The position numbers were made by a program, and so were the translations under genes. A stretch of 14,631 nt of DNA, from positions 1 to 14,631 of the IMG/VR virus record IMGVR_UViG_2671180727_000007; one strand, 5' to 3'. Shown here in pieces: positions 1 through 14,631 of this stretch; positions within the stretch are counted from its first letter, which is position 1, and each line of letters opens with the position of its first letter. This DNA comes from a virus (Duplodnaviria; Heunggongvirae; Uroviricota; Caudoviricetes). Below the pieces are notes generated by a model. That model did not search any database. It was not told where the DNA came from and worked only from the letters and a program-made list of their open reading frames with translations.

Positions 1-98
<98 letters not shown>

Positions 99-129
99 TA
101 ATAAAGAAAACCCGCCTGTTGGCGGGTTT
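99..129 (-). terminator. Intrinsic terminator-like hairpin (stem AAACCCGCC / GGCGGGTTT, loop 117..120) with a T-rich tract on the minus strand; weaker on the plus strand
   Basis: 9-bp GC-rich inverted repeat at 108..116 and 121..129; minus-strand downstream sequence is TTTTCTTTATT. Sits immediately inside the left terminal repeat boundary. Confidence 0.45.
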
Positions 130-404
130 ATAAAGAATTATGGCGCTTGTTGAGGAAGTCACTCCTCTTACGCACTTTGTTTTGCCATGCCGGCAGTTAG
201 CTTCTGCCTTTGACTATTCATGCGGCAACCCCGCATTTCGCCACAATGGGCAATTCACTTTTATGGAATAAACTGGCCGTTGTGTCGATTTAATTAGCAT
301 GGCCTTACCATGCTAATTTATTCAACTTGTACAATCCTACAAATCTATCCACTCAGGCTTACACCGTCTTCGTTATTGTAGAAATGAGGATCATCAGCGT
401 TGAA

Positions 405-620
405 TCAGCTTAGAGCAACGACATTTGCTGCTGCTGGGCCTTTAGCCCCATTCTCGATAGAGAATTCGACCTGCTGGCCTTCTTCCAAAGTGCGGAAATT
501 ATTACTCTGAATTGCCGAAAAATGTACAAAAACATCTTTACTGCCATCAGCAGGAGAAATAAAGCCAAAGCCTTTATCAGAGTTAAACCATTTTACTAAA
601 CCAGTCATTTTATTAGACAT
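405..620 (-). CDS. CspA-family cold-shock protein (70 aa + stop)
   Basis: Translation [38 protein letters not shown]... carries the RNP1/RNP2-like motifs (KGFGFI, VFVHF) of the E. coli CspA/B/G/I family. Internal ATG at 618..620 is preceded by AAGAAGG 7 nt upstream; the 103-aa form in the ORF track is a leader read-through. Confidence 0.88.
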
Positions 621-835
621 AGATATTACCTTCTTAATTTTGTGAGCCACATAGTGCGGCGAGAATTTGATCTGTATAGATTGGGACTTACTTAGGCACT
701 TAAGGAGGAGACTCACGAAGAAGGGAAATCAGAAGATAACACTGAACTGAGACTGCTTTACTAAAACTGCTTACATAAGGTCTGTCTTGCAAACCAACGA
801 TGCTATTAACGCATACCCCTTCTTTTCATGCAACC
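621..835 (-). promoter_or_regulatory. csp promoter and long 5' leader with cold-box-like element
   Basis: On the minus strand: -35 TTGCAT (828..833), 18-nt spacer, -10 TTAATA (804..809), then a leader starting ~TTGGTTTGCAAGACAGACC (779..797) that resembles the cspA cold box as I recall it, giving a ~180-nt 5' UTR as in cold-shock genes. Confidence 0.55.
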
Positions 836-949
836 TTTATTTTTCAAAGATAACTAATTTTTGTCACCATTGGTTTAGTAAACGTTAACGAACCAGACGA
901 TGCCAGACACCTTTACAGAGAACAGATGCCCGCCAATTGGCGGGCATCA

Positions 950-1513
950 TTATGCGCATTTCGCAATATCTTTGCGGCGTTTAATCAGTTTCTCCGCAAT
1001 TTGCTCTATTTCGTTGAAATCTTTCGAGACGCTGTTTCGAAGCGCCAGATTCCATTTACTCAAAGTTCGGGCATTTTGGACAATTTGATCGCCCTCTTTA
1101 AGTCTTCCGTTATTCATGAGCCATTCAGCCACATCAGCCCAATCCCAGAGAGGAGACTGGCCTTTTATGCGTTGTACAGGGCAAGGGAAGTCGCCGCTTC
1201 CGCGCTTACCGTCTTTGAGCAACGCCACTGCCTGGCGAGACAGGTCTGTCAGTTCCGCGATATCGCTTAAGCCCACAAGAGCCGAGTCGACGGATTCAAC
1301 AATTGCACCGATACCGGCTGATTCAATATTGTCGACCGCAGATGCGATAGCTGCATCAAGTGATTGTGCTTCGCGGTCAAATTCTACATAGACGGAGTTT
1401 CCATATGCGCAAATTAGCGCATCGTCACAGCCGTTTTGGTACAGCGCGTCTTCCAGTCCTTCCGTCTCATACGATACGCCTGAGAGCGTCAGAGTGAAGT
1501 TATAAAGCGCCAT
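950..1513 (-). CDS. Hypothetical protein (187 aa); C-terminal region looks helix-turn-helix-like; second gene of a two-gene operon
   Basis: ORF with ATG at 1511..1513 preceded by AGGAAA 4-5 nt upstream; the track's 199-aa form starts at a TTG 12 codons earlier. No family recognised from sequence. Confidence 0.6.
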   Translation of the reverse strand: MALYNFTLTLSGVSYETEGLEDALYQNGCDDALICAYGNSVYVEFDREAQSLDAAIASAVDNIESAGIGAIVESVDSALVGLSDIAELTDLSRQAVALLKDGKRGSGDFPCPVQRIKGQSPLWDWADVAEWLMNNGRLKEGDQIVQNARTLSKWNLALRNSVSKDFNEIEQIAEKLIKRRKDIAKCA

Positions 1514-1573
1514 AGTTTTCCTTTGAAGATAGTTGGACAGTTTCTGCAAAAGGCGGCTAATGCCGCCTTGAAA

Positions 1574-1798
1574 TCATTTACAACGATCAACCATTCGTTT
1601 GATCTGTTTGGCATGGTTTTCGGGATTACCCGGAGTCGACCATACGCTCATTTGGTGAGTTTTGTGTTCACCTTCTGGATTACCGCATCGCAGTCTGCAA
1701 AAACAATGTGCAGCACCACCAGCTGCTACCCAGATCCAGCCTTTACTTAATGCATAGTCAATGGCTGCTTGAATATGCTTATTCGGATGTTGCTTCAT
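1574..1798 (-). CDS. Hypothetical small Cys/His-rich protein (74 aa); first gene of the operon
   Basis: ATG at 1796..1798 with GGAGG SD (complement of 1802..1806) and a consensus promoter immediately upstream; contains an HCFCRLRCG cluster. Family not recognised. Confidence 0.6.
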   Translation of the reverse strand: MKQHPNKHIQAAIDYALSKGWIWVAAGGAAHCFCRLRCGNPEGEHKTHQMSVWSTPGNPENHAKQIKRMVDRCK

Positions 1799-1815
1799 TC
1801 GCCTCCGATAATAGT

Positions 1816-1845
1816 ATTCTATTCACAGTGTTGACATCTGTCAAC
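1816..1845 (-). promoter_or_regulatory. Near-consensus sigma70 promoter (TTGACA-17 bp-TAGAAT) for the minus-strand operon, with the -35 embedded in a 16-bp perfect palindrome GTTGACA-TC-TGTCAAC (1830..1845)
   Basis: -35 is the complement of 1839..1844, -10 the complement of 1816..1821, spacer 17 bp; the palindrome overlapping the -35 is operator-like. Confidence 0.65.
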
Positions 1846-2010
1846 GGCGACTGAATTTCATCCGTTCATGCCACACCCCCATCCATCTCATGTATGTGAC
1901 CTAAAGATGGTCAGCACAGCTTACCAAAATAAGACAACTAATTATCTTCGGTGATCTCAATATTTTCCCCTGAACAAAGTTGACATGACGCCATAAACCC
2001 GTTCTCTGTT

Positions 2011-2019
2011 TGATATAAT
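2011..2019 (+). promoter_or_regulatory. Extended -10 promoter element TGaTATAAT, candidate promoter of the plus-strand recombination operon
   Basis: TG at 2011..2012 and TATAAT at 2014..2019; the -35 at 17-bp spacing is poor (CCATAA), and a TTGACA at 1980..1985 is too far upstream to pair. Confidence 0.4.
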
Positions 2020-2052
2020 TGATACAGATTTTATAAGTAGGAACCTATTAGA

Positions 2053-2484
2053 GTGAACACTGATATTTTTTCTAAAATCATGGCCGATCTGGAGTTCGAC
2101 CGCGACAACCTTGAGGAAGTATGGCGTAAACAGCCACGGCTTTTAATGGAGTATGGGTCAAAACTAGCGCAGGCAGATCGAGATGTCGCAGAGGCAAAAC
2201 TTAACCTTGAAGCTGTTGAAGCAAAGCTATACGACACAGAGCGTAAGAACTTGAGTATGAACGGCATTAAGTTCAACGAGTCTGTACTGGACGCTAAGGT
2301 TAAAACAAACCCACAGTATCTGTCTAAACGGCAGAAGTTGGATGAAGCACGGCACATCGCAGACATATACAAACATGCTGTCGCCGCCTTTTCGCATCGC
2401 CGAGACATGATCGTTCAGGCGTCAAAGATGGCCATCGTTGAATTAGAGCGATTAGGCTCTGAACGCTTTATTACTCCCCGTTGA
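2053..2484 (+). CDS. Hypothetical coiled-coil protein (143 aa), possibly a UvsY-like recombination mediator
   Basis: GTG start at 2053 with AGGAA 9 nt upstream (an internal ATG at 2080 has no SD). Size, predicted helical character and position next to gp32-like and UvsX-like genes; sequence resemblance to T4 UvsY is loose and from memory only. Confidence 0.5.
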   Translation: MNTDIFSKIMADLEFDRDNLEEVWRKQPRLLMEYGSKLAQADRDVAEAKLNLEAVEAKLYDTERKNLSMNGIKFNESVLDAKVKTNPQYLSKRQKLDEARHIADIYKHAVAAFSHRRDMIVQASKMAIVELERLGSERFITPR

Positions 2485-2601
2485 TTTTTGATAGATAATA
2501 AGTAAGTACTGATCTATCATTTAACAGCTCGAAAGAGCCACGAATGAACGAAAGCCCAACGCGCATAGCGCCATCGGCCAAATCACAACAAGGAGAAACA
2601 C

Positions 2602-3630
2602 ATGTCTAAGACATTACTTGATTTGCTTAACAAAACTCGTGAAGACATTGCCGCCAAACGTGGCAACAACGTTGATCTGACTCGCTTAAAAGACGGCGTC
2701 AACTATATCCGCATCTTCCCGAATAAAGACGACCCAAACGGTAAGTTCTTCCAGACTTTCGGTATGCACTACGTTAAGTATCAGAACGAGGAAGGTAAAG
2801 AAGCAACCAACGCTTATATTTGTGAGCAACATACTCACGGTCGCGCTTGTCAGCTATGCGAAATGGTTATGGAAGGTCGCGCTCGTCACAAGGGTAACAA
2901 AGCAATGGAAGAACGCATCGGTCAAATGCGTGCCACTCCTCGCTACCTGGTCAACGGCATTCTTTCTGCTCGTGAGGATTTCGCAGATGCTGAGAAATGC
3001 CAGTTAATCGAGCTGCCGTCTACTGTATTCGATGATATCTGCAAAGCAATCACCGAAGACATCGCTGATGATATCGGCAATCCACTGAGCAAAGAGGAAG
3101 GCTACGCATTCCTGATTAAACGTACTGGCTCTGGTCGCGATACCAAATATGACGTCTCGCCTAAGCGTAAAGTCTACAAAGGCGATATCGAAGATAAATT
3201 CTGGAACACCCAGCATGATCTGATCGCATACGCAAATCAGGCTGATGAAACTCGTCTTCTGTCGACAGTTCGCACTATGGGTCGTCTGATTGGCATCGCT
3301 GCACCAACTGCCGCAGCATCTGCACCAGCAATTTCCTCAACCGCGAAAACATCGGCTGCGGCACTACCTGGATTTGGCTCTGTCACTGGTCATACGGAGG
3401 GTGCGACTGCTGTAGCAACCGCTCACACCCCAGCTTCTGAACCAACCAGTCTGGTTGATGAAGAAATCCTCCGTGCCGTTGAAACTGAATTTAAACCAGA
3501 AGCAAGTTCCGCTGCCGTTGCCGTATCAGTCAAAGAGTCTGAAGCAGTCGCAGCGACATCTGTAGCAACCGCATCTGCGACGGAAGATGAAGGTCTGGAT
3601 GACCTACTGAGAGAGCTGGACTCTCTGTAA
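2602..3630 (+). CDS. gp32-like single-stranded DNA-binding protein with zinc-binding motif and acidic C-terminal tail
   Basis: GGAG SD 7 nt upstream of ATG. Cys74-X8-Cys83-X2-Cys86 with nearby His residues (CEQHTHGRACQLC) resembles the T4 gp32 Zn subdomain; C-terminus TEDEGLDDLLRELDSL is acidic as in SSBs; residues ~231-330 are Ala/Ser/Thr-rich low complexity. Confidence 0.7.
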   Translation: MSKTLLDLLNKTREDIAAKRGNNVDLTRLKDGVNYIRIFPNKDDPNGKFFQTFGMHYVKYQNEEGKEATNAYICEQHTHGRACQLCEMVMEGRARHKGNKAMEERIGQMRATPRYLVNGILSAREDFADAEKCQLIELPSTVFDDICKAITEDIADDIGNPLSKEEGYAFLIKRTGSGRDTKYDVSPKRKVYKGDIEDKFWNTQHDLIAYANQADETRLLSTVRTMGRLIGIAAPTAAASAPAISSTAKTSAAALPGFGSVTGHTEGATAVATAHTPASEPTSLVDEEILRAVETEFKPEASSAAVAVSVKESEAVAATSVATASATEDEGLDDLLRELDSL

Positions 3631-3646
3631 TCCCATTACGTGACCA

Positions 3647-3675
3647 GTAAGGCGTCTACGGACGCCTTACTTTTT
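3647..3675 (+). terminator. Rho-independent terminator after the SSB gene
   Basis: Stem GTAAGGCGTC (3647..3656), loop TACG, GACGCCTTAC (3661..3670), followed by TTTTT. Confidence 0.7.
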
Positions 3676-3690
3676 GGAAGGAATGTACCG

Positions 3691-4635
3691 GTGAATTATC
3701 TCTTCGTAGATGGCAATAGCCTGGGTTATTACCACCAACAATCTGACAAATTGCACAACGGCGAAATGGAAGTACAGGCTGCTTTCGGCTTTGTTAAGAA
3801 CGTCCGTCGTTATGCCTCCATCCTCCATGCCCGACCTATGATTCTTTGGGATGGATTTAGTGACAAGCGTCGCGACTTTTACCCGGACTACAAAGCAAAT
3901 CGCGACGACGATCCTGATATGAAAAAGATGAAGGAAGGCTTTGCTGTCCAGAAGCCATACATCCTCAAAATGATGACCGCGCTTGGTGTTAACCAAATCA
4001 TTGCAAAAGATGCAGAAGCGGATGATCTGGCCGGGCTGCTGGTATCCCGCATGGCACCGCAGCCAACCGTTGAACACATCTATCTGTTAACAGGCGATAG
4101 CGACTGGCTTCAGTTAGTTCGTGAAAACGTAAGCTGGGTAAGCCTGCGTGAAGACGCCAAAAACAAGCAGGTTAATTTTGAGCAATTTGCGGAGCTGACA
4201 GGATTCGCCACGCCTCGCGCATTTTTGGAAGCAAAAGCATTACAAGGCGATAACTCGGACAACATTAGCGGTGTTGGAGGCATTGGTGCTGGCGGTGCGA
4301 AAGAGCTGCTGCATGAATGGGGAAGTGTCGCAACGATGGTACGCGGCATCAACGACGGCTCAATCGTGGTTAATAAAGGGCGTCATAAGACCGCCTTCAA
4401 CAAACTAGCGAAGAATGCCTTCAACGAGAAAACAGGCTGTCGAATGCTCGAAGCGTTCAAGAGAAACATCACGCTAATGAACCTGATTGAGACGAAGTTT
4501 CCGCCTACCGAAATCGAAACAATCAAAGGCAATCGTGACGTGAAAGCATTCGAGCAAATGTGCTACGAGCTGAATTTCCGTTCGTTCCTTGAAGACCTTG
4601 AAGTGTTTGTTCTTCCATTCGAAAGGTATTGCTAA
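3691..4635 (+). CDS. 5'-3' exonuclease / flap endonuclease (T4 RNase H-like, FEN family)
   Basis: Motifs LFVDGNSL, RRDFYPDYKANR (cf. T4 RNase H RRDFAYYYKKNR), AEADDLAG, LLTGDSDW and an H3TH-like GVGGIGAGGA. GTG at 3691 with GGAAGG 9 nt upstream is preferred over the in-frame ATG at 3640, which lies inside the preceding terminator hairpin. Confidence 0.85.
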   Translation: MNYLFVDGNSLGYYHQQSDKLHNGEMEVQAAFGFVKNVRRYASILHARPMILWDGFSDKRRDFYPDYKANRDDDPDMKKMKEGFAVQKPYILKMMTALGVNQIIAKDAEADDLAGLLVSRMAPQPTVEHIYLLTGDSDWLQLVRENVSWVSLREDAKNKQVNFEQFAELTGFATPRAFLEAKALQGDNSDNISGVGGIGAGGAKELLHEWGSVATMVRGINDGSIVVNKGRHKTAFNKLAKNAFNEKTGCRMLEAFKRNITLMNLIETKFPPTEIETIKGNRDVKAFEQMCYELNFRSFLEDLEVFVLPFERYC

Positions 4636-4901
4636 TGCTTAAATCGATTATCAATGGCGCTACAACCACCCCTGCCCAACTAGCAAAAGAGATTGTCTTT
4701 TATCACGGTGAGTACGCTGTCATCGCACTGCCGTCAATTCTAGGCGCTGCCGGAATGAAAGCGACAGATCGCGAGTTTGGATTAGTCAGCGAGCAGGTCG
4801 TAAAAATCCTCGCTCGTGTATCCAGACTCCTTAACCACGATGCGATTGTATTCGATGAATCCGCCGCTTTAAAACGAATCAACGAAACAAAAGGAGCCTG
4901 A
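4635..4901 (+). CDS. Hypothetical protein (88 aa), translationally coupled to the exonuclease gene
   Basis: ATG overlaps the exonuclease stop (TAATG) with GAAAGG 8 nt upstream; ends 2 nt before the recombinase ATG. Confidence 0.5.
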   Translation: MLKSIINGATTTPAQLAKEIVFYHGEYAVIALPSILGAAGMKATDREFGLVSEQVVKILARVSRLLNHDAIVFDESAALKRINETKGA

Positions 4902-4903
4902 TC

Positions 4904-5977
4904 ATGGCAAAAGGAAAATCCGCACTGGCACTTGCTCTGAAAAAGAAAATCGGTAGCAACGACGAAATTCAGAAAGTAACTCATTGGATTGATACAGGCT
5001 TTCCACCGTTAAACAAAGCTATTTCTGGTCGTTACGATGGCGGCTTCCCATGTGGTCGTATCGTCGAAGTATTCGGTCCTCCAAGTGCAGGGAAAACGTT
5101 CCTTGCAACAGCAGCGATGATCTCCGCTCAAAAACAAGATGGTCTGGCGGTATTCCTCGATCATGAAAACAGTTTTGACGTTGGCCTGGCTGTCGCCAAT
5201 GGCCTGAACGCAGATGAGGATGACGGTCAGTGGGTATACAAGCAGCCAGATACCTTCGAAGACTCTGTAGAGTTGATCGGCACAATACTTAAATTGGTTC
5301 GTGATGAAGAGCTTATCCCCGAATCAGCACCAATCTGTATCGTGGCTGACTCTCTTGCGTCTATGGTTCCGAACTCCAAAGCCGAGAAGTTCGAAAAGAT
5401 GGCTGAAGGCACTGCCAAAGACAAAGATCAGCTAAACATGAACGACAATACGGCACTGGCTCGTGCGACGAGTGCGAACTTCCCTACTCTGGCTTTGTGG
5501 GCACGCAAATACAACGCCTGCATCATCTTCTTGAATCAGGTTCGCACAAAAATCGGTGTAATGTTTGGCGACCCTACTACGTCGCCAGGTGGAGATTCAC
5601 CGAAGTTCTACGCTTCTGTACGTATCCGTCTTGGTGCATCGGTGATGAAGGATGGTAAAGAGAAGATCGGCCAGGACGTAGGCGCAGAATGCATCAAAAA
5701 CAAAGTTGCACCACCGTATGGCAAATGCACCTGGAAATTCTACTTCGATCCTACTCGTGGCCTCGACGTTATCGAATCGCTCGTCGAGTACATGCTGGAA
5801 GAAGGATACCTGCCAAAGAACGCCAGCGGGCGAGTTGAAATTGGTGACAAGAAATACACCAAATCGCAGATCGTCGAGATGTATCGGGAGAAGCCACTGG
5901 CTGAAATCATTGCGGCTTTGCAGGCAATCGACGACCGAAGAGCAAAAGACAACCCCACCGAGTCAGTAGAAGAGTAA
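4904..5977 (+). CDS. RecA/UvsX-family recombinase
   Basis: Walker A GPPSAGKT (RecA: GPESSGKT), AVFLDHENSFD, Walker B-like ICIVADSLASM; GGAG SD 7 nt upstream of ATG. Confidence 0.8.
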   Translation: MAKGKSALALALKKKIGSNDEIQKVTHWIDTGFPPLNKAISGRYDGGFPCGRIVEVFGPPSAGKTFLATAAMISAQKQDGLAVFLDHENSFDVGLAVANGLNADEDDGQWVYKQPDTFEDSVELIGTILKLVRDEELIPESAPICIVADSLASMVPNSKAEKFEKMAEGTAKDKDQLNMNDNTALARATSANFPTLALWARKYNACIIFLNQVRTKIGVMFGDPTTSPGGDSPKFYASVRIRLGASVMKDGKEKIGQDVGAECIKNKVAPPYGKCTWKFYFDPTRGLDVIESLVEYMLEEGYLPKNASGRVEIGDKKYTKSQIVEMYREKPLAEIIAALQAIDDRRAKDNPTESVEE

Positions 5978-5982
5978 ACACA

Positions 5983-6006
5983 AGGCGTCCACAGGACGCC
6001 TTTTTT
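5983..6006 (+). terminator. Rho-independent terminator after the recombinase gene
   Basis: Stem AGGCGTCC (5983..5990), loop ACA, GGACGCCT (5994..6001), then TTTTTT. Confidence 0.75.
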
Positions 6007-6011
6007 ATCTC

Positions 6012-6040
6012 TTGAAAATATATAAGCACTTACTTATTAT
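6012..6040 (+). promoter_or_regulatory. Sigma70-like promoter TTGAAA-17 bp-TATTAT upstream of the membrane/SPFH operon
   Basis: -35 at 6012..6017, -10 at 6035..6040, 30 bp upstream of the ATG at 6070. Confidence 0.5.
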
Positions 6041-6069
6041 TTTCGCATAACAACCACATAGGAAAACAC

Positions 6070-6270
6070 ATGATCAAAATCTATCTATTGGCAGTAGCCA
6101 CAGGCCTTTCAGTGGCTCTCATCTACGGTTTACTGGTTCCGTCGCTGATTTCTACCAAGAGTGATTTAGCCGTCATGTTTGGAGTTATCGTTGGTTTTGG
6201 TGCTCCTGTAATCGGTCTTATTGCTGGTCGTAAGTTTATCAACTCACTAATCAAAGCAAAGGGGAAATAA
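6070..6270 (+). CDS. Small membrane protein with two predicted TM helices (66 aa)
   Basis: Two hydrophobic stretches (LLAVATGLSVALIYGLLV; VMFGVIVGFGAPVIGLIAG); AGGAAA SD; ends 3 nt before the SPFH gene. Confidence 0.55.
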   Translation: MIKIYLLAVATGLSVALIYGLLVPSLISTKSDLAVMFGVIVGFGAPVIGLIAGRKFINSLIKAKGK

Positions 6271-6273
6271 GTA

Positions 6274-7104
6274 ATGAAGAAAGGTTTACTTGCAGTTGCT
6301 CTGGCGGCTATTTGCACAATGGGTCTTACTGGCTGTGATCGCGTGGAGCCTGGATACGTTGGCATCAAAGTAAACAAATTAGGTGAAGACAAAGGGATTG
6401 GTGAAGTGGTTGGCGTTGGTCGCCAATGGACAGGTCTTAACACCGAACTTTACGTATTCCCGACCTTCAAACAAATGAAGACCTACGACGAGCCGTTCAC
6501 ATTCCAGATGAGTGACGGTACTGCTATTGGTCACAAAATTGGCGTTGCGTATCTGGTTAATCGTGACAAGGTAACGACGGTGTTCCAGACCTATCGCAAA
6601 GGCGTAGACGATATCACCGAATCAGATCTGCGTCAGAAAATTGCCGACTCTCTAAACCGTTTGGCCAGCCGTATGACCACTGACTCATTTATCGACGGTG
6701 GTAAGGCACAATTGCTGGACAACGCACTGAAAGATATTCAGAAAGAGATGTCTCCGGTTGGTATTGAGGTACTGAGCCTGTCATGGGTTGGAAAGCCTGA
6801 TTACCCAAAAACTGTCATTGAATCTATTAACGCCAAAGTAACGGCTAACCAGCGTACTCTGCAACGTCAGCAGGAAGTTGAACAACGTAAAGCTGAGGCG
6901 AATATGCTACGTGAACAGGCTAATGGTGAAGCTGATGCTATCCGTGCTCGTGCGCAAGCAGAAGCAGACGCCATTCGTCTGCGCGGTGAAGCTCTGCGTC
7001 AAAACCCGAACGTTATGGAACTGGAAGCCATCAATAAATGGAATGGCCAGTTACCGCAGTACATGACTCAAGGGGCTAACACTCCTTTCATTACAGTGAA
7101 ATAA
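6274..7104 (+). CDS. SPFH/band-7 (prohibitin/HflK-like) domain lipoprotein
   Basis: N-terminal signal peptide with lipobox LTGC; central SPFH-like region; C-terminal coiled coil with AEADAIR repeats typical of stomatin/HflKC proteins. Confidence 0.75.
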   Translation: MKKGLLAVALAAICTMGLTGCDRVEPGYVGIKVNKLGEDKGIGEVVGVGRQWTGLNTELYVFPTFKQMKTYDEPFTFQMSDGTAIGHKIGVAYLVNRDKVTTVFQTYRKGVDDITESDLRQKIADSLNRLASRMTTDSFIDGGKAQLLDNALKDIQKEMSPVGIEVLSLSWVGKPDYPKTVIESINAKVTANQRTLQRQQEVEQRKAEANMLREQANGEADAIRARAQAEADAIRLRGEALRQNPNVMELEAINKWNGQLPQYMTQGANTPFITVK

Positions 7105-7120
7105 CTCCCCTAAAAAGTTC

Positions 7121-7145
7121 AGGCGTCCAGTTGGACGCCTTTTTT
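7121..7145 (+). terminator. Rho-independent terminator after the SPFH gene
   Basis: Stem AGGCGTCC (7121..7128), loop AGTT, GGACGCCT (7133..7140), then TTTTT; same stem as the terminator at 5983. Confidence 0.75.
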
Positions 7146-7195
7146 ATCGCAATTATCTTATTAAGAAAACAATTTGTTTAAAAGGATAAGAAAAC

Positions 7196-7621
7196 ATGAC
7201 AGCTATTAAGAAACTCTACGATGCCGCAAACGTGGCTCTGGATGTTATTGATGATGAAGTAGCAAAAGGCTTTCCTGAACCTGATTGGGCGCATCAGCTA
7301 CGAAACGCTATCGCAGAAATGACCCCACCAGATCCAACCCCCGACGAGACAGACTGGCAGCGATTCATCCGTATGTACGCTCAGGAAATAGGTCCAACGC
7401 CAACGGCAGAGCAGGCAATGCTGCTGAAATACTTCAAAGAGGCGGGAGAGGATTTACCAATTGATGACTCAGCATATTGGTTCCACTGCGCATGGCGTAA
7501 GTATGACGTGATATTCACACAAGGCATGGGAAGCAAAGATATGGTTGTGTGGCATCTACTCCATATAGACACAGCCGTTGACAGAGTTATTGAACAGTTT
7601 TTCCCTAAACAAGAAGATTGA
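7196..7621 (+). CDS. Hypothetical acidic protein (141 aa)
   Basis: ORF with AGGA SD 8 nt upstream; Asp/Glu/Pro-rich; no recognisable family. Confidence 0.6.
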   Translation: MTAIKKLYDAANVALDVIDDEVAKGFPEPDWAHQLRNAIAEMTPPDPTPDETDWQRFIRMYAQEIGPTPTAEQAMLLKYFKEAGEDLPIDDSAYWFHCAWRKYDVIFTQGMGSKDMVVWHLLHIDTAVDRVIEQFFPKQED

Positions 7622-7676
7622 TCGCCTATTCATAACTAACAAAATAAGTAAACACTAACCACAAAAGGAAAAACAC

Positions 7677-7952
7677 ATGAGAGTTTTAGTTCGAATCGTT
7701 ACCAGCACTGTCTATGACGTGTTTCCGCTTTTTATGGTCAAAGCCGATGGCCTTAACGACGAAGAAACTGACGCGCTGATCCAGCGTATTCTCGTTGAAT
7801 ATACAGGTCATGACGCTGATTCAGTGATGGTTGATGATGATGGTGTTTGTTGGCATAACGGCAACTGTTGGTACGTAGAAGAGACTCAACAAATCAGTGA
7901 TGAAGATGCCGAACATCTTGAGCGTATTTTAAGCATCAGCACTTTTGAGTGA
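7677..7952 (+). CDS. Hypothetical highly acidic small protein (91 aa)
   Basis: ORF preceded by the conserved AAGGAAAAACACATG initiation context; roughly 24% Asp+Glu. Confidence 0.55.
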   Translation: MRVLVRIVTSTVYDVFPLFMVKADGLNDEETDALIQRILVEYTGHDADSVMVDDDGVCWHNGNCWYVEETQQISDEDAEHLERILSISTFE

Positions 7953-7991
7953 GTTTACAGTAAAATTTATATAAGTTAGTATCTACCTATC

Positions 7992-8171
7992 ATGAAGATT
8001 TTTATTGAATACTTGTTACTCATCGTTTCAATAGCTTTTGTCATCGACTGCATTTTCACTGGTGTCATTCGTAAAGTCTTTTCCCCGGTGCACGACGTAG
8101 TCATAAACGCTTTGGCTATCGTGCTCGTATTTAATTCAGCATTTGATGTAATCAAAGAGGTGGCAGCATGA
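7992..8171 (+). CDS. Putative small hydrophobic membrane protein (59 aa), below the ORF-track size cut-off
   Basis: My own translation: MKIFIEYLLLIVSIAFVIDCIFTGVIRKVFSPVHDVVINALAIVLVFNSAFDVIKEVAA; stop overlaps the next ATG (ATGA). No clear SD. Confidence 0.4.
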   Translation: MKIFIEYLLLIVSIAFVIDCIFTGVIRKVFSPVHDVVINALAIVLVFNSAFDVIKEVAA

Positions 8172-8503
8172 AGGCCATCCCATTCGCGCTGTTGTTCCTT
8201 TCTTCGATCGTTGTGGCCGACACCACTGTTTATCAGTGTGAAATGTCTGTAGCCGACGTTAAGAATGGCGCTCTTACCGACGTCATAAAAGCACCATATG
8301 GAGCGATGGTCGTAGACAGCGGCGACCAGTTCTATGTTGTGCGTGACGATCGAGTGTTGTCATCCCCATATCTCACAAATCGTAATGGCAAATTAACCGG
8401 CGTCGGAGAAGACCACTTCGTATACAACAAATACAAGGGCTTCTATGGCGTTCACGCTTCTCAGCAAAGCTACCTTTTCGATGACTGCAAGGAGGTTGGA
8501 TAA
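8168..8503 (+). CDS. Hypothetical secreted protein (111 aa) with N-terminal signal peptide
   Basis: MKAIPFALLFLSSIVVA-DTT has a signal-peptide profile; GAGG SD upstream. Confidence 0.6.
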   Translation: MKAIPFALLFLSSIVVADTTVYQCEMSVADVKNGALTDVIKAPYGAMVVDSGDQFYVVRDDRVLSSPYLTNRNGKLTGVGEDHFVYNKYKGFYGVHASQQSYLFDDCKEVG

Positions 8504-8715
8504 TGGCATTAACACTGGCAGGTCTGGAAATCGAGAAAACAAGCGGCTACTGGCGTGCTAAGGGTTTCAAGCAGCCTGGCATTCTTGAGCGTCTGGAACG
8601 TGAAGATGGGTATATCGTCCACCAGCGGCGTGAATGGCGTATGTACGATCCAGAAACAGGAAAACTGACTACAAAAGCCGGAACACTTTGGGGTCTGTTG
8701 AAGAAAATACACTAA
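8503..8715 (+). CDS. Hypothetical protein (70 aa), translationally coupled
   Basis: ATG overlaps the previous stop (TAATG); AGGAGG SD 9 nt upstream. Confidence 0.5.
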   Translation: MALTLAGLEIEKTSGYWRAKGFKQPGILERLEREDGYIVHQRREWRMYDPETGKLTTKAGTLWGLLKKIH

Positions 8716-8722
8716 TAGCACC

Positions 8723-9205
8723 AACCACTGCGGTGAGTAGTCTACTCACCGCATTCGTATCCAGCTCATTATCCACTGTAGTCAGTAACAAAACCTTCCT
8801 ACATATCTGCTAACCACTGTAGCGAGTAGACAGCCTTTCATTCGCATCAAACAACCACTATGGTGAGTATTGGAGTGAGATGTCCAGCGGGTATCCACTA
8901 TGGTGAGTAAGCCTTTGCTGTTTTCAGTGGATATCCACTCGCCACAGTGGATACGCTCAAAGATGAGGGCGACAACAACCACTATAGACAGTAAATTTTC
9001 CAAGATACCCAGTGACCACTAACCTCGCAGCCCTTGTTTCATCAGTGTTAGTGATCACTAACATTTAATTCAGTATTTGCATTCTACTGCCTACAGTGGT
9101 TATCAACAGATAACGATACTCACTATAGTGGATAGCGAATTACAGATATAAGTAAGGCTCACTACAGTGGATAGTGAGCCTTACTACTAACTACAGTGGT
9201 TGGGC
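8723..9205. repeat. Iteron array downstream of repA (incA-like control locus): about 8 copies of core AACCACTNTRGTGAGTA at ~40-bp spacing, then 4 copies in the opposite orientation (CTAYAGTGGWT), around a 16-bp perfect palindrome GTTAGTGATCACTAAC (9047..9062)
   Basis: CCACT cores at 8725, 8773, 8814, 8856, 8895, 8935, 8979, 9016; AGTGG cores at 9095, 9127, 9166, 9195; the same core as the upstream iterons. Confidence 0.8.
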
Positions 9206-10260
9206 TATTTGCGAGTCTTTGCCTTGCGCAACTCTTCGAGAAGCGCCAGTTCTTCTTTACTCAACATGACCATTTTGCCTTCTTTTTCGTCAGGCACAAC
9301 GTCGATAATGTCATCTTGATTCTCATCTGGGAGGCTATATTCCGTCTCATCATTATCGATTTTTGTTGATATTTGTGCCTGGCGTAACTTTGGCCGCCTA
9401 TAGTGGATGACGAAGTAGACCGAGTTTCCGCGCTTAACTTCCGTGTAATCGAGATATCCTATCTCTCGCAGCTGTTCCATAGCCTTTCTTACCGTCGCAT
9501 TCTGAGTAATAGTGCGACTTGTCAGATTAAGTCTGGCGCGTAAACGGGCTAGTGATATTGGTGCCGGATCAGGCGGCAAACTTTCAATAAAAGTATAAAG
9601 CGCCTGAGCGGATTCTTTTCTTGAGAGTTCGTTTATAGCCCGGAGTTGCAGAAGAACCTTTTTGTCGAACTGGTAGAGTTCGAAAATCTTGGGATCTGCT
9701 TTCAGTTCGACCGTATCGTGCTTGACACTATATTTTGCCGTTTGCACAAGATGCGTTACGTAAAACTCATCAGAGCCTTTGCTACGGAACGAGATGGTAT
9801 TTGTGGCAATACGGCTTAGCGAACTGTCCAGGCGTTTGCGTAACTTCGCTGATGACCTGGCGGTCGGAATGCCACACAGCCTTACAAACTCAACGAACGG
9901 CAACGTGACAGTATCGCCAACGACCTTGTGTTTGGCAAACGCGTGGATTATTCCCACCCACGTTTTAAAGTCGTTATCCATATCAAGCCGAAGGCCAGAG
10001 ATCCTTATGTCTTCGTACCCTTCGGCTTTTGCCAGAGACAGCTGTTTGAGTTCAGCAGAGGCATCCATAGAGACCATTTGCCCCTTTCTTCCTCTGGATG
10101 TCGATTTCAGCGTCGGAACGAAGAGGCCCAGACGCATCAAAGCAACAGGCTGAACAGTGTTATTAGTGTTAGGAACCAACGTAACAACTTCGCCTGTCTT
10201 TTTATCTGTTTCTGAAAATGCTTCAACGATCGCTATGTTTTTATTGCCGTTTTCGCTCAT
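9205..10260 (-). CDS. repA: Iteron-binding plasmid replication initiator RepA (RepFIB/P1 RepA-like family)
   Basis: 351-aa ORF flanked by iteron arrays. N-terminal [17 protein letters not shown] and later blocks ([30 protein letters not shown]; [29 protein letters not shown]; IGYLDY) match my recollection of RepFIB/P1-type RepA; not verified by search. Confidence 0.85.
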
Positions 10261-10305
10261 TCCAAATGTCTCTTGTTATTCGACGGCTTTGGTGGCCTTT
10301 GCTGA

Positions 10306-10428
10306 TTACAGTGGATAGTAGCACTCATCACAGCGGTTATCCTACCGTCTATAGTGGTTTTTCTCCTCTCTATAGTGGTTGCTTTGCTCCCTATAGTGGA
10401 TTATTCGCTCTCTATAGTGGATATCGAT
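10306..10428. repeat. Origin-proximal iteron array: six tandem ~21-bp direct repeats (consensus CTCTATAGTGGWT...)
   Basis: TATAGTGG at 10350, 10371, 10392, 10413 (exact 21-bp period), plus ACAGTGG at 10308 and ACAGCGG at 10331. Confidence 0.85.
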
Positions 10429-10470
10429 CATGTCTGAAGGCAGATGGCACAACGGTTTGAGGTGGGCGGG

Positions 10471-10520
10471 GATCTTATTGGGTCTTTATGGGTCTCTTTG
10501 GTTCTCTTTGTGATCTGAAT
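10471..10520. repeat. Five tandem 10-bp repeats (GATCTTATTG / GGTCTTTATG / GGTCTCTTTG / GTTCTCTTTG / TGATCTGAAT), DUE/13-mer-like, only two retaining GATC
   Basis: Exact 10-bp periodicity visible directly in the sequence. Confidence 0.7.
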
Positions 10521-10534
10521 TACTGGATCGGGCC

Positions 10535-10590
10535 TGTGGATAAAAATCAGAGAATTTCAAGAACAGGTAACTCTACTCTTCTGTGGATAT
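10535..10590. promoter_or_regulatory. DnaA boxes: TGTGGATAA (10535..10543, perfect consensus) and TGTGGATAT (10582..10590, 8/9)
   Basis: Match to the DnaA box consensus TTATCCACA / TGTGGATAA; further 8/9 matches at 10677..10685 (TTATCCATA) and 10908..10916 (AGTGGATAA). Confidence 0.7.
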
Positions 10591-10699
10591 TTAAGGACAT
10601 AAGAATCATGACTAAGAGTAGAGTTTAAAATATATCTATGTATATCAGTATGTTAATGAAGAATTAAGTCATTAAGTTATCCATAAAAGACAATGTGCT

Positions 10700-10810
10700 C
10701 TACTCTCTACAGTGGATATATACAGCTCTCCAGAGTGGTTGTTTTACTCTTCATAGCGGTTATTCAGCTCTCTACAGAGGTTTCTTTGCTCTCCATAGTG
10801 GATGGCAACA
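10700..10810. repeat. Second iteron array: five ~21-bp direct repeats, more degenerate
   Basis: CTCTACAGTGGATATATACAG, CTCTCCAGAGTGGTTGTTTTAC, TCTTCATAGCGGTTATTCAG, CTCTCTACAGAGGTTTCTTTG, CTCTCCATAGTGGATGGCAAC. Confidence 0.75.
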
Positions 10811-10848
10811 CCCTTTCAGACCAGTAACCGCAACGGCTAGAGGCGATC

Positions 10849-10910
10849 GGGGATCTCTTTGGATCTTCTATTTGATCTTACTTGGGATCTCTTATTTGGA
10901 TCTATCCAGT
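10849..10910. repeat. GATC-rich 11-13-bp repeats resembling oriC 13-mers (GATCTnTTnTTTT): five GATC sites
   Basis: GATC at 10852, 10862, 10874, 10886, 10899 within GATCTCTTTGG, GATCTTCTATTT, GATCTTACTTGG, GATCTCTTATTTG, GATCTATCC; followed by a DnaA-box-like palindrome TATCCAGTGGATA. Confidence 0.7.
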
Positions 10911-11003
10911 GGATAACTGGGATAAGTAAAACAGGCAAATGCAGATTAAGGTATGCCTAATGAGTTATCGTAGCATCGGCCAATAACTACTGAAAAAACG
11001 ATT

Positions 11004-11648
11004 ATGGATCTAAAACGCACGCGCTGGGTTCGTCGTCTTGAGGACGGCTCCTACACTATCGAATCAAATTCCAACCTGAATAAGCAGAAGTTACTTTGTG
11101 ATATCTGCGGTATAGCGGCGAAGTGCCCGATCTACGAAACCAGAATTAAACTTGATAAGGCTGGTGTGAACTTTCATTTGAATAGTTGTATCAGGTACGT
11201 TCCATTGCTCGCATTTCGTAAACCGATCATCGGATTGGATGCGCCCTACTTCAACACACTCCGTTCAGGGGTAACGTGGCGAGATCGTTTATCACCAGAC
11301 AAGCTGATTTGCCTCGTATCCGCAGACACAGGGAAAATCATCCGTTTTGGGAAAGTAGACAAGGTTTACTCAGGCCCAGTTGACGAGATGTTGCGGAAAC
11401 ACAGCCGGTTTAATCACCTCTGCATGGGTGGTGAGAAAATCGAGAAGGTTGAAGAAGTGATCCGCAAATCCTACGGACACTTCCTGACCAAAGATAGCCT
11501 GCTCACTGCAATCTACATCAGACATGTAAAACGTGAGTTCGACCTTGAATACCATAGCGAAGAAGAACTGAACCTTGTCGATCCACGTCCTAAAGCTGGC
11601 GTCATAAGCATAAATGCAGCGCGTAAAAAGCCCACTGACGCGCTGTAA
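11004..11648 (+). CDS. Hypothetical protein (214 aa) with an N-terminal Cys cluster (CDICGIAAKC)
   Basis: Long ORF, weak SD; no family recognised. Confidence 0.5.
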   Translation: MDLKRTRWVRRLEDGSYTIESNSNLNKQKLLCDICGIAAKCPIYETRIKLDKAGVNFHLNSCIRYVPLLAFRKPIIGLDAPYFNTLRSGVTWRDRLSPDKLICLVSADTGKIIRFGKVDKVYSGPVDEMLRKHSRFNHLCMGGEKIEKVEEVIRKSYGHFLTKDSLLTAIYIRHVKREFDLEYHSEEELNLVDPRPKAGVISINAARKKPTDAL

Positions 11649-11903
11649 CCCTCCAGATCGTATATTGGCGTAGATAGAATCTACGCCCCCCTCAAAATAG
11701 CTCTCATAGCGTTCTACAGTGATCCTGTCTTATTTTTAGTCATACAGACAAGCAAAGTTGCGCCACGATAAATAGGTATATACTTACTTATAAATTTTGT
11801 ATATTAAGGCGCTCGTTTCATTCCTAACATACCGTTATGCATAGTTGTTTACCTCCTCATTGCTCTTAGAATTTGTATCAAAATAACCACAAAGGAAAAA
11901 CAC

Positions 11904-12989
11904 ATGACTTTGCCATACGGCGTCATTTCTGACTGCCACTACCACAAATGGGATGCGTTCTCCACGACGAACGCTGAGGGGCTTAACTCCAGACTTGAAA
12001 TACAGTTGGAAGCAACGAAAGAAGCAGCCATCGCCATGAAGAAGGCCGGTTGTAAGTACATGTTGGTTGCCGGTGATACATTTCACGTCCGAGGAACTGT
12101 GTCCCCTTCTGTTTTGCATTACGTAACTGAAACGTACAAGTGGATTATCAACGAGCTTGATCTGACAGTAGTAATGCTGGCCGGTAATCACGATCTTGAA
12201 ACCAACGATTCAGTATATAGCGCCAACGCAGCAGCATCGCTGAGTTCTATCGGCGTGGTAATCGTATGTGGCAAGCGCCCACACTCAATAAAAATTGGCG
12301 ATGTGACTGTCCACCTGATTAGCTGGCGTAACAATCATGCGGAGCTTATCAGCGATCTGAAAGCATTACGTAAGAGCGTAGAAGGTGATAATCATGACGT
12401 TGTTATCCATACATCCATTAACAAAGCCATTCCAACAATGCCTGACGTCGGTATCGATGCGCAGGAGTTAAAGGATATCGGCTTTCGTCTCGTGCTTAGT
12501 GGGCATTACCACAACCACAAAGAGGTCATTCCTGGAGTTATCAGTGTCGGTGCACTGACTCATCAAAATTGGGGAGATGTTGGATCTCTGGCTGGCTACA
12601 TGATCGTAAACCCGGACGGCAGTTTCAGTCACTACGAAACCAGTGCGCCTAAATTCATTAACCTGGAAGATGATGTTGCTGATGACCAAATTCGCGGCAA
12701 CTACGTGCGTTTCCGCGCCGTAATTGAGAACGATGAAGAAGGCATTAAGTACCAGAACATCCTCAAAACAATGGGTGCAAAAGGTGTCGTGTGCAACTTC
12801 ATCCGTAAGTCATCAATGATGGAAGGTACAGCCAGCACAACTGAAACCAGCAAAATCGATAGCCTGGGAGAGTCGGTATCTGCTTATTGCAAGATTGTCC
12901 ACGATACTGACGGCGGATTTGATCTGAGCAAATTGGATATTTTGTGTCAGGAAATCCTCACCGAAGCGGAGAGTTCGGAGGCTGTGTGA
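11904..12989 (+). CDS. sbcD: Mre11/SbcD-like calcineurin-type phosphoesterase nuclease (T4 gp47-like)
   Basis: Metallophosphatase motifs in order: SDCHYH (D-x-H), AGDTFH (GD), LAGNHD (GNHD), SGHYHNH (GH-x-H); preceded by the AAGGAAAAACACATG initiation context. Confidence 0.85.
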   Translation: MTLPYGVISDCHYHKWDAFSTTNAEGLNSRLEIQLEATKEAAIAMKKAGCKYMLVAGDTFHVRGTVSPSVLHYVTETYKWIINELDLTVVMLAGNHDLETNDSVYSANAAASLSSIGVVIVCGKRPHSIKIGDVTVHLISWRNNHAELISDLKALRKSVEGDNHDVVIHTSINKAIPTMPDVGIDAQELKDIGFRLVLSGHYHNHKEVIPGVISVGALTHQNWGDVGSLAGYMIVNPDGSFSHYETSAPKFINLEDDVADDQIRGNYVRFRAVIENDEEGIKYQNILKTMGAKGVVCNFIRKSSMMEGTASTTETSKIDSLGESVSAYCKIVHDTDGGFDLSKLDILCQEILTEAESSEAV

Positions 12990-13218
12990 AGCAAAGTCGT
13001 TATGGGAGCTTTCGAGACTTTGCCATCACGATGAAAAGACTTGAACGAGGCCAGACGGTGATGTTTCACAAGCCCTACCCGCCACAAGGAAATCCCGTAG
13101 CGTTTTATCTTGGAAGGTTAACAAGAAAAGGCGTATTGAGGCGCAGATCCTTCCCGGCGCATACGGAGTTCAGATTGAAAGAAGGCCAAAAGCTAACACG
13201 CGGTATCAGAGGTGTTAT

Positions 13219-13222
<4 letters not shown>
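12986..13222 (+). CDS. Small, highly basic hypothetical protein (78 aa) coupled between the sbcD-like and sbcC-like genes
   Basis: GTG at 12986 overlaps the sbcD stop (GTGA) with GGAGG 5 nt upstream; its stop overlaps the sbcC ATG (ATGA). About 18 Lys/Arg against 4 Asp/Glu. The track's 92-aa form starts inside sbcD. Confidence 0.5.

Positions 13223-14631
<1,409 letters not shown>

Follow-up and report, generated by a model that had tools for sequence, protein, structure and literature searches.

A mobile two-gene cassette of SSU5-type phage-plasmids pairs an SPFH lipoprotein with a small membrane hairpin and may act as an HflK/C-like membrane cage

The cages formed by SPFH proteins (HflK/C, prohibitin, erlin, stomatin and flotillin) have been understood structurally only recently. 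Of these, HflK/C, prohibitin and erlin lie on the side of the membrane away from the cytoplasm, where an exported lipoprotein would also be. HflK and HflC, a pair of paralogues with an N-terminal transmembrane (TM) helix, form an FtsH-modulating cage (7vhq, 7wi3, 9cz2), and the SPFH-NfeD operons (QmcA-YbbJ, 8z5g; YqiK-YqiJ) each encode an SPFH scaffold and, as its partner, a small multi-pass membrane protein. SPFH genes are also regularly noted in phage genome papers without explanation, and a phage paper of 2026 states outright that it is unexplained why so many viruses encode one. Here we analyse such a gene in the IMG/VR virus record IMGVR_UViG_2671180727_000007 (Caudoviricetes), over positions 1 to 14,631 of that record (the window). 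It lies in a two-gene cassette, in which a gene for a 66-residue membrane protein is followed by one for a 276-residue SPFH lipoprotein, with a promoter before them and a terminator after (Table 1).

A preliminary description of this DNA, made from its letters alone, had proposed an operon of a small protein with two TM segments and an SPFH/band-7 lipoprotein, and both identifications are borne out. The 276-residue protein scores 106 bits with Pfam PF01145 (Band_7) over residues 23-209, where the cut-off is 23.6 (E=2.6e-30), matches PHROG 200, 'lipoprotein' (E=3e-108), and has a lipobox with Cys21. The 66-residue protein has two hydrophobic segments, is modelled as a helical hairpin, and matches PHROG 1130, 'membrane protein; moron/host takeover' (E=2e-25), the PHROG category being 'moron, auxiliary metabolic gene and host takeover'. 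Both genes thus fall in database families that are already known. Our literature search found no description of an obligate hairpin partner, of the indel and allelic behaviour in two families of phage-plasmids, of an allele that lacks the lipobox, or of an HflK/C-type architecture.

The hairpin gene and the lipoprotein-type SPFH gene form an obligate pair. Homologues of the SPFH protein occur in 413 phage records from very different lineages. When 128 loci were searched with hidden Markov models (HMMs) of both proteins, 121 proved to have a full-length SPFH gene, and the hairpin gene lay upstream on the same strand in 109 of these, directly upstream in 105. The other four of the 109 have it within 800 nt; two of them are IS1 insertions, and in the rV5-like phage 4MG and the Luz24-like phage TL one small open reading frame (ORF) stands between the two genes. 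The 12 loci of the 121 that have no hairpin gene, from Bacteroidales and Uliginosibacterium, carry distant homologues (25-30% identity) that are TM-anchored and not lipoproteins; where the SPFH gene is of the lipoprotein type, the partner is upstream in 109 of 109 loci. In the reverse search, from three divergent hairpin clusters, a gene for a 274-275-residue Band_7 protein came next in 11 of 11 places, with a 4-nt overlap. The hairpin family was reached through profile and HMM searches; with the single 66-residue protein, which is short and hydrophobic, tblastn with the low-complexity filter on found just 6 phage records and phmmer 8 representatives only.

The pair is found in SSU5-like, P1-like, P2-like (P88), lambdoid (phiP27), N4-like (Moo19), rV5-like (4MG) and Luz24-like (TL) phages. 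In Moo19 it is annotated as similar to N4 gp19/gp20, and in phiP27 and the P1-type records of PLSDB the hairpin gene is unannotated. The N4-, rV5- and Luz24-like phages are strictly virulent and carry the pair in early regions.

Two loci in chromosomes of Shigella flexneri and E. coli (L008 and L009) appeared to have lost the partner. The loss is only apparent: in these prophage copies an IS1 element with InsA-like minus-strand ORFs, at about 5230-6000, separates the hairpin and SPFH genes. In metagenome-assembled genomes of Bacteroidales (L016, L017, L022, L024 and L029) an ORF of ~107 residues with three TM segments precedes the TM-anchored SPFH homologue. These ORFs gave no significant Pfam hit and no match to the hairpin family, and were rejected as members of either the NfeD or the hairpin family; they may encode an analogous but unrelated SPFH partner.

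The preliminary description had also called the operon a self-contained unit borne on a mobile element, and comparison with relatives upholds both points. The window belongs to an E. coli phage-plasmid of the SSU5/pHCM2 type, a group already recognised in the literature. Escherichia phages CMS-2020a, PhiR41_1 and Cyrano are 94-99% identical to this region, and Salmonella phage SSU5 is collinear with it, as are hundreds of non-mobilisable enterobacterial plasmids of ~105-112 kb. Three groups of SSU5-type plasmids (Cronobacter pFS2, Enterobacter pFJMB80299_2 and Klebsiella plasmids) have no counterpart of the cassette. At their empty site a single RecA terminator (GGCGTCCA..TGGACGCC-T-run) runs directly into the sequence found here to the right of terminator 2 (ATTATC...AAGAAAACAATTTGTT). 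Because the empty sites have one hairpin joined to the right flank, the filled site is to be read as terminator, promoter, two genes and terminator. The cassette is a discrete indel of ~1.14 kb with one copy of a duplicated ~25-bp hairpin at each end, which is the architecture of a moron. Like the phage morons HK97 gp15 and lambda bor/lom, it is a presence/absence insert between conserved genes and has, as predicted from sequence, its own sigma70-like promoter and intrinsic terminator. Unlike them, it consists of two coupled genes, and its base composition is not distinct from that of its flanks (GC 0.42-0.49 against 0.45-0.50).

A second exchange, independent of the SSU5-type indel, is found among P1-type phage-plasmids. 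In RCS47, vB_EcoM-813R1 and others the pair lies between upl/plp and tRNA-Met/ban, in the slot that canonical P1 fills with tciA-tciB-tciC. The alternative sequences (L132 2593-3298 versus L133 2570-3633) diverge right after a common hairpin. The upl/plp genes of P1 are not themselves this pair, since Upl and Plp are separate minus-strand genes beside the cassette in RCS47. The P1-type copy has no sigma70-like promoter of its own, and the pair lies within early operons in P88 (P2-like) and in lambdoid prophages, again unlike the classical morons; the cassette's own promoter is therefore specific to the SSU5-type copy. Among 5,426 complete E. coli genomes, 760 have a relative, at 418 chromosomal and 440 plasmid places that are always on phage-plasmids or in prophages, and 195 have this very cassette in full. 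In E. coli the family is accessory.

The promoter and terminator assigned to the operon in the preliminary description are both supported by their conservation. The putative promoter (TTGAAA-17-TATTAT at 6012-6040) is among the three best sites in the window, where matches to the consensus are no commoner than in shuffled sequence (19, against 21.2 expected), so that the match alone proves nothing. Its -35 and -10 (TATYAT) elements and their 17-nt spacing do not vary among 21 distinct SSU5-type upstream sequences in which the 5' untranslated region varies, and this conservation extends to lineages whose adjacent genes are saturated at synonymous sites (synonymous divergence, dS, about 1.6). 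The promoter is absent at the empty sites. The predicted terminator 2 has a hairpin (7121-7140) of -15.1 kcal/mol (z = -5.2) followed by a T-run, and is kept in 15 distinct downstream sequences; the hairpin of terminator 1 (5982-6002) has a folding energy of -14.7 kcal/mol (z = -6.1). One lineage shows a compensatory change in a terminator stem. The two ORFs lie in the same frame. The stop codon of the small ORF is separated from the start of the SPFH ORF by 3 nt, and in other lineages the two overlap by 4 nt (ATGA), an arrangement that implies translational coupling and hence near-equimolar synthesis of the two proteins. Inside the promoter spacer is an inverted repeat, ATAAG-N6-CTTAT (6022-6037), which is unique in the window and kept across lineages; in SSU5 it is a perfect palindrome, TAAGTACTTA. 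It is possibly an operator or repressor-binding site.

Both ORFs are real, constrained coding genes under purifying selection. Measured against the window sequence, the ratio of non-synonymous to synonymous change (omega) is 0.02-0.07 for the SPFH gene, even at dS about 1.6, and 95% amino acid identity is retained at saturated dS. For the hairpin gene omega is 0.1-0.25, and the positive selection expected of an arms race was looked for in this gene and not found. The two genes do not always travel together as alleles. Cyrano and locus L084 have SPFH DNA that is 99.9-100% identical to that of the window and hairpin DNA that is only 80% identical, implying that a recombination breakpoint lies between the two genes and that hairpin alleles can be exchanged.

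Where would the SPFH protein act? Its N-terminus, MKKGLLAVALAAICTMG followed by LTGC-DR, carries a canonical lipobox, and by its signal peptide and lipobox the protein is a predicted substrate of Lgt and LspA. The lipobox, defined as [LVI][ASTVI][GAS]C, is present in 126 of 144 family members, and the residue at +2 in these is Asp in 99, Tyr in 13 and Glu in 12; the window protein has Asp at +2 and Arg at +3. Under the '+2 rule', Asp at this position signals retention in the inner membrane in Enterobacteria, as does Tyr in model lipoproteins, and the lack of a disordered linker after the lipidated Cys also favours retention. No linker is present in the AlphaFold 2 (AF2) model, where the folded SPFH domain begins at +3, two residues past Cys21. 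A further pointer comes from an allele that is common in SSU5-type elements (P0005; L129-L131; 362 index blocks). Here Cys21 is replaced by Tyr (LTGC to IIGY), erasing the lipobox, and the hydrophobic N-terminus of ~18 residues, the partner, the promoter and both terminators are kept. All 14 substitutions are confined to residues 4-92, which suggests that the N-terminal segment of P0005 is recombinant. It thus seems that a lipid anchor and a signal anchor can stand in for each other, as would be most readily explained by a site of action on the periplasmic side of the inner membrane. The Asp at +2, the missing linker and the Cys21Tyr allele all suggest that location for the SPFH protein.

The modelled fold is that of a cage former. 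In the AF2 model (mean confidence score, pLDDT, 78) an alpha/beta SPFH domain is followed by a 65-residue helix (residues 179-243) and then a short helix, the last part of the chain being disordered in the monomer (pLDDT <50, residues 248-276). This C-terminal tail belongs to the best-conserved portions of the family, with invariant columns, and is predicted to be an oligomerisation or cap element. Domain, long helix and conserved tail together give the modelled protein a cage-forming layout. Foldseek searches of the PDB aligned it over its full length, best with HflC (7vhq_G, 6e-14), then with prohibitin, HflK and erlin, and lower down with stomatin, flotillin, vault and QmcA (rank 37); the Foldseek probability was 1.0 for HflK/C, prohibitin, erlin, stomatin, flotillin and QmcA. 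By sequence the protein is remote from every solved structure, HflK being the sole match in a search of the PDB (E=0.007). The NCBIfam equivalogs place the protein outside HflK and HflC themselves, with 30.2 bits against a cut-off of 134.4 for TIGR01932 and 18.7 against 159.4 for TIGR01933, and neither the NCBIfam nor the PDB sequence search gave a match to QmcA or YqiK. A search for the SPFH subfamily, as the preliminary description advised, thus confirms Band_7 membership and leaves the protein far below the hflC/hflK cut-offs.

The phage protein resembles HflK/C structurally over its full length, in its SPFH domain, its wall helix and its C-terminal segment, and the two have the same predicted membrane side, the periplasmic face of the inner membrane. 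HflK/C is also its only relative at the sequence level in the PDB and NCBIfam, at ~17% identity. The differences lie in composition and anchoring. In place of two paralogues, each cassette has a single SPFH gene and a 66-residue hairpin, and in place of a TM helix the SPFH protein has a lipid anchor (a signal anchor in one allele).

The hairpin protein is modelled by AF2 with high confidence (pLDDT 90) as two helices, residues 2-27 and 32-65, joined by a turn at S28-S31. Its family comprises 137 clusters of 52-92 residues that are annotated as 'hypothetical', one UniRef homologue being named 'Holin'; none of the 137 clusters has a Pfam domain, and the window protein has no Pfam hit at E<=0.01. 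Pro24, Ser28 and Gly38 are invariant and Pro46 nearly so, and the motif [hydrophobic]2-P-x-[LMA]-[LIV]-S is found in 127 of 128 members. The last 14 residues have a mean net charge of +3, so by the positive-inside rule both ends should be cytoplasmic and the conserved four-residue turn periplasmic. A natural in-frame fusion (P0021, on a P1-type contig of 94 kb; 8 member sequences) joins the hairpin C-terminus to the SPFH signal peptide in a protein of 347 residues that keeps the lipobox. It supports a cytoplasmic C-terminus for the hairpin, since the fusion would otherwise be topologically impossible, and cleavage by LspA could release the mature lipoprotein from it.

The partner is not of the NfeD/YqiJ type that the preliminary description had suggested looking for, as it gives no Pfam hit, has no soluble domain and is modelled as a bare hairpin. 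The SPFH-NfeD operons are similar in that a small multi-pass membrane protein accompanies an SPFH scaffold, and in both cases the partner would be expected inside the cage footprint. Their partner, however, carries the NfeD OB-fold (PF01957), absent from the phage hairpin, and their SPFH domain is cytoplasmic, whereas that of the phage protein is predicted to be periplasmic. QmcA itself is a distant structural match only, with none in sequence.

We propose, tentatively, that the locus is an accessory phage membrane module of two genes, mobile and of the 'moron' type, that acts as an HflK/C-like cage on an inner-membrane client. The 276-residue protein would be exported, lipidated at Cys21 and kept on the periplasmic face of the inner membrane, where it would oligomerise into an HflK/C-like ring or cage through its SPFH domain, its ~65-residue wall helix and its C-terminal cap segment. 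The hairpin would be a dedicated transmembrane partner in or around the membrane patch beneath the cage, with the P-x3-S turn directed at the SPFH domain and the basic tail on the cytoplasmic side, and would take the place held in HflK/C by an N-terminal TM helix or in other bacterial SPFH systems by NfeD. Together, cage and hairpin would fence off a microdomain of the inner membrane and thereby control a conserved host client there. Expression would be early in infection in most phages, and the SSU5-type pair is probably also made in the lysogen because its own promoter looks constitutive.

Not all parts of this proposal are equally secure. The analysis shows the gene anatomy, the indel, the obligate pairing, the purifying selection, the fold class of the SPFH protein and the hairpin fold of its partner. 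We infer the inner-membrane localisation, the oligomeric cage and the physical pairing, and a periplasmic SPFH oligomer on the inner membrane, with the hairpin as its partner, is probable. The conservation of the SPFH protein, its spread over unrelated entry routes and hosts, and its early expression suggest that the client is a conserved host inner-membrane component, and the constraint on its sequence fits a conserved host or self-assembly interface. That this client is FtsH is suggested by analogy and is rather doubtful; like the benefit to the phage, it is speculative. Bolder still, and a little less likely, is the idea that the pair represents a distinct, virus-specific class of membrane cage and a generic tool of host takeover common to SSU5-, P1-, P2-, lambda-, N4-, rV5- and Luz24-like phages, in which a periplasmic cage captures or insulates a universal host machine such as FtsH and the hairpin is a previously unrecognised minimal partner replacing both TM anchor and NfeD.

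Several points weigh against the proposed cage and its client. Glu at +2, found in the 12 members noted above (rV5-like and others), does not belong to the classical signals for inner-membrane retention in E. coli, and Arg at +3 may weaken retention based on Asp. The Cys-to-Tyr protein of P0005 could be cleaved by signal peptidase I and be soluble in the periplasm. The interchangeable partner alleles argue against a highly allele-specific interface between the two proteins. No feature of the module links it to FtsH specifically, and in strictly lytic phages there is no choice of lysogeny on which FtsH could act. Our literature search also found no functional study of the pair.

The first alternative is that the pair serves superinfection exclusion or anti-phage defence, blocking incoming DNA at the inner membrane, or triggering or preventing abortive infection, and so protecting the lysogen or the already infected cell. 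Small inner-membrane moron proteins such as HK97 gp15 and T4 Imm/Sp are known exclusion factors, and the T4 Imm/Sp-type pairs share with the cassette a small inner-membrane protein, an anchored protein that faces the periplasm, and early expression. The moron architecture and the promoter of the SSU5-type copy make expression in the lysogen plausible; the P1-type slot is shared with tciABC, an accessory cassette; and the pair lies in early regions of virulent phages, adjoining a P22 gp17-like exclusion-related gene in Moo19. We nevertheless think this explanation unlikely. No family in the defence models of PADLOC-DB 2.0 matched either protein at E<=0.01. The T4 pairs have no relation to the cassette in sequence or fold, and the phage SPFH pair is far more conserved and more widely spread than known exclusion proteins. 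Values of omega of about 0.03 for the SPFH gene and 0.1-0.25 for its partner are unlike those of fast-evolving exclusion factors, and the pair is shared by phages with unrelated receptors, entry routes and host genera. Its presence in virulent phages and the strong constraint on the SPFH protein are more in keeping with a generic role at the host membrane than with lysogen-specific defence or arms-race exclusion.

A second alternative, also improbable in our judgement, is a membrane-integrity or lysis-timing factor of the Psp or flotillin kind, which would stabilise the energised inner membrane without a specific client, delaying premature holin triggering or buffering envelope stress. SPFH genes are widespread in large virulent phages and giant viruses, the pair lies in early regions, and the hairpin, with two TM segments and a basic C-terminal tail, is like a class II holin, the name 'Holin' having been given to one homologue. 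Against this, the pair was never in a lysis cassette among the loci inspected. Bioinformatically, such a factor is hard to tell from the client-directed cage that we prefer.

Very unlikely is a lysogenic-conversion lipoprotein that benefits the bacterial host as a virulence factor or as a TLR2 agonist released in vesicles. The precedent is PM0222 (Pmorf0222) of a Pasteurella multocida prophage, an HflK/C-like SPFH protein that is reported to act through Toll-like receptors (TLR) 1/2 and to contribute to virulence (PMC9872710). It is prophage-borne, as the cassette's SPFH protein is, but it is likened to the latter by description only and its role concerns the animal host. The cassette's own promoter and its occurrence in plasmids of clinical Enterobacteriaceae would suit such a role. 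However, strictly virulent phages, for which host conversion is irrelevant, also carry the pair; the SPFH gene is obligately coupled to an inner-membrane hairpin; and Asp at +2 suggests inner-membrane retention.

Lysis proteins (a spanin-like pair or a holin) and a captured housekeeping QmcA/YqiK-NfeD operon, which have a superficial likeness to the cassette through Rz/Rz1 (membrane protein and lipoprotein) and the SPFH-NfeD operons, are effectively refuted by the family-membership tests and scarcely credible, since a 276-residue SPFH lipoprotein with Asp at +2 is unlike a ~60-residue proline-rich o-spanin, the hairpin has neither periplasmic domain nor coiled coil and the pair lies outside lysis cassettes, and the housekeeping orthology that the preliminary description had itself named as an objection is ruled out by the accessory distribution in E. 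coli together with the missing NfeD domain and QmcA/YqiK matches.

As a system for study, the cassette is a compact genetic entry point, with 1.1 kb of DNA, natural presence/absence alleles, a lipobox-null allele and an obligate partner of 66 residues, and it has counterparts in tractable N4-like, P1-like and P2-like phages. If the pair does capture FtsH or another inner-membrane machine, it would represent a novel way of taking over the host and provide a minimal model of an SPFH-partner assembly. If it serves exclusion or defence, it would be relevant to the ecology of phage-plasmids, SSU5-type elements being common in clinical Enterobacteriaceae.

Table 1. Features of the cassette, followed by those of its surroundings, in coordinates of the 14,631-nt window
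Feature	Position	Strand	Remarks
Terminator copy 1 (RecA/UvsX terminator; left boundary repeat of insert)	5982..6010	+	GGCGTCC-ACA-GGACGCC + T-run
Putative sigma70-type promoter	6012..6040	+	TTGAAA-17 nt-TATTAT; 10/12 consensus match
Shine-Dalgarno of small ORF	6060..6063	+	AGGA, 6 nt ahead of ATG; kept in upstream alignment
Small partner (hairpin) gene	6070..6270	+	66 aa
Shine-Dalgarno of SPFH gene	6260..6264	+	AGGGG, within 3' end of small ORF
SPFH lipoprotein gene	6274..7104	+	276 aa
Predicted signal peptide and lipobox	6274..6336	+	L-T-G-C; Cys21 codon 6334-6336; +2 Asp, +3 Arg
SPFH/Band_7 domain	6340..6900	+	aa 23-209; Pfam PF01145, AF2, Foldseek
Long single helix (predicted)	6808..7002	+	aa 179-243, Ala/Glu/Arg-rich; AF2; counterpart of cage-wall coiled-coil helix
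Conserved C-terminal tail, then stop codon	7003..7104	+	NPxVMELEAINKWNGxLPxYMTxGxxTPFxxVK
Terminator copy 2 (right boundary of insert)	7121..7148	+	GGCGTCC-AGTT-GGACGCC + T-run
Cold-shock-domain (CSD) protein	405-716	minus	Near left end of window; Pfam CSD E=4e-33
gp32-like single-stranded-DNA-binding protein	2602-3630		
5'-3' exonuclease	3640-4635		
RecA/UvsX recombinase	4904-5977		357 aa, intein-free
DUF7238 protein	7196-7621		
repA	9205-10260	minus	Rep3-type, iteron-flanked
SbcD and SbcC genes			Also among window neighbours

The cassette is surrounded by genes for recombination and replication. Arrays with more than 20 iterons in all (consensus about CTCNCTAYAGTGGWT) flank repA on both sides (8720-9201 and 10298-10915), one of the arrays being in inverted orientation; repA and these arrays are the replicon and copy-control region of the phage-plasmid. 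The RecA/UvsX gene, intein-free here, occurs in Cyrano and several related plasmids as a 779-residue intein/LAGLIDADG version (L001 3739-6078; L032 1501-3843), a second presence/absence polymorphism that directly adjoins the cassette. On the other side, just 3' of terminator 2, is the palindrome AAACAATTTGTTT at about 7163-7180, where cassette-free relatives keep AAGAAAACAA-TTG-TT; the palindrome may serve the downstream DUF7238 operon as an operator or promoter element.

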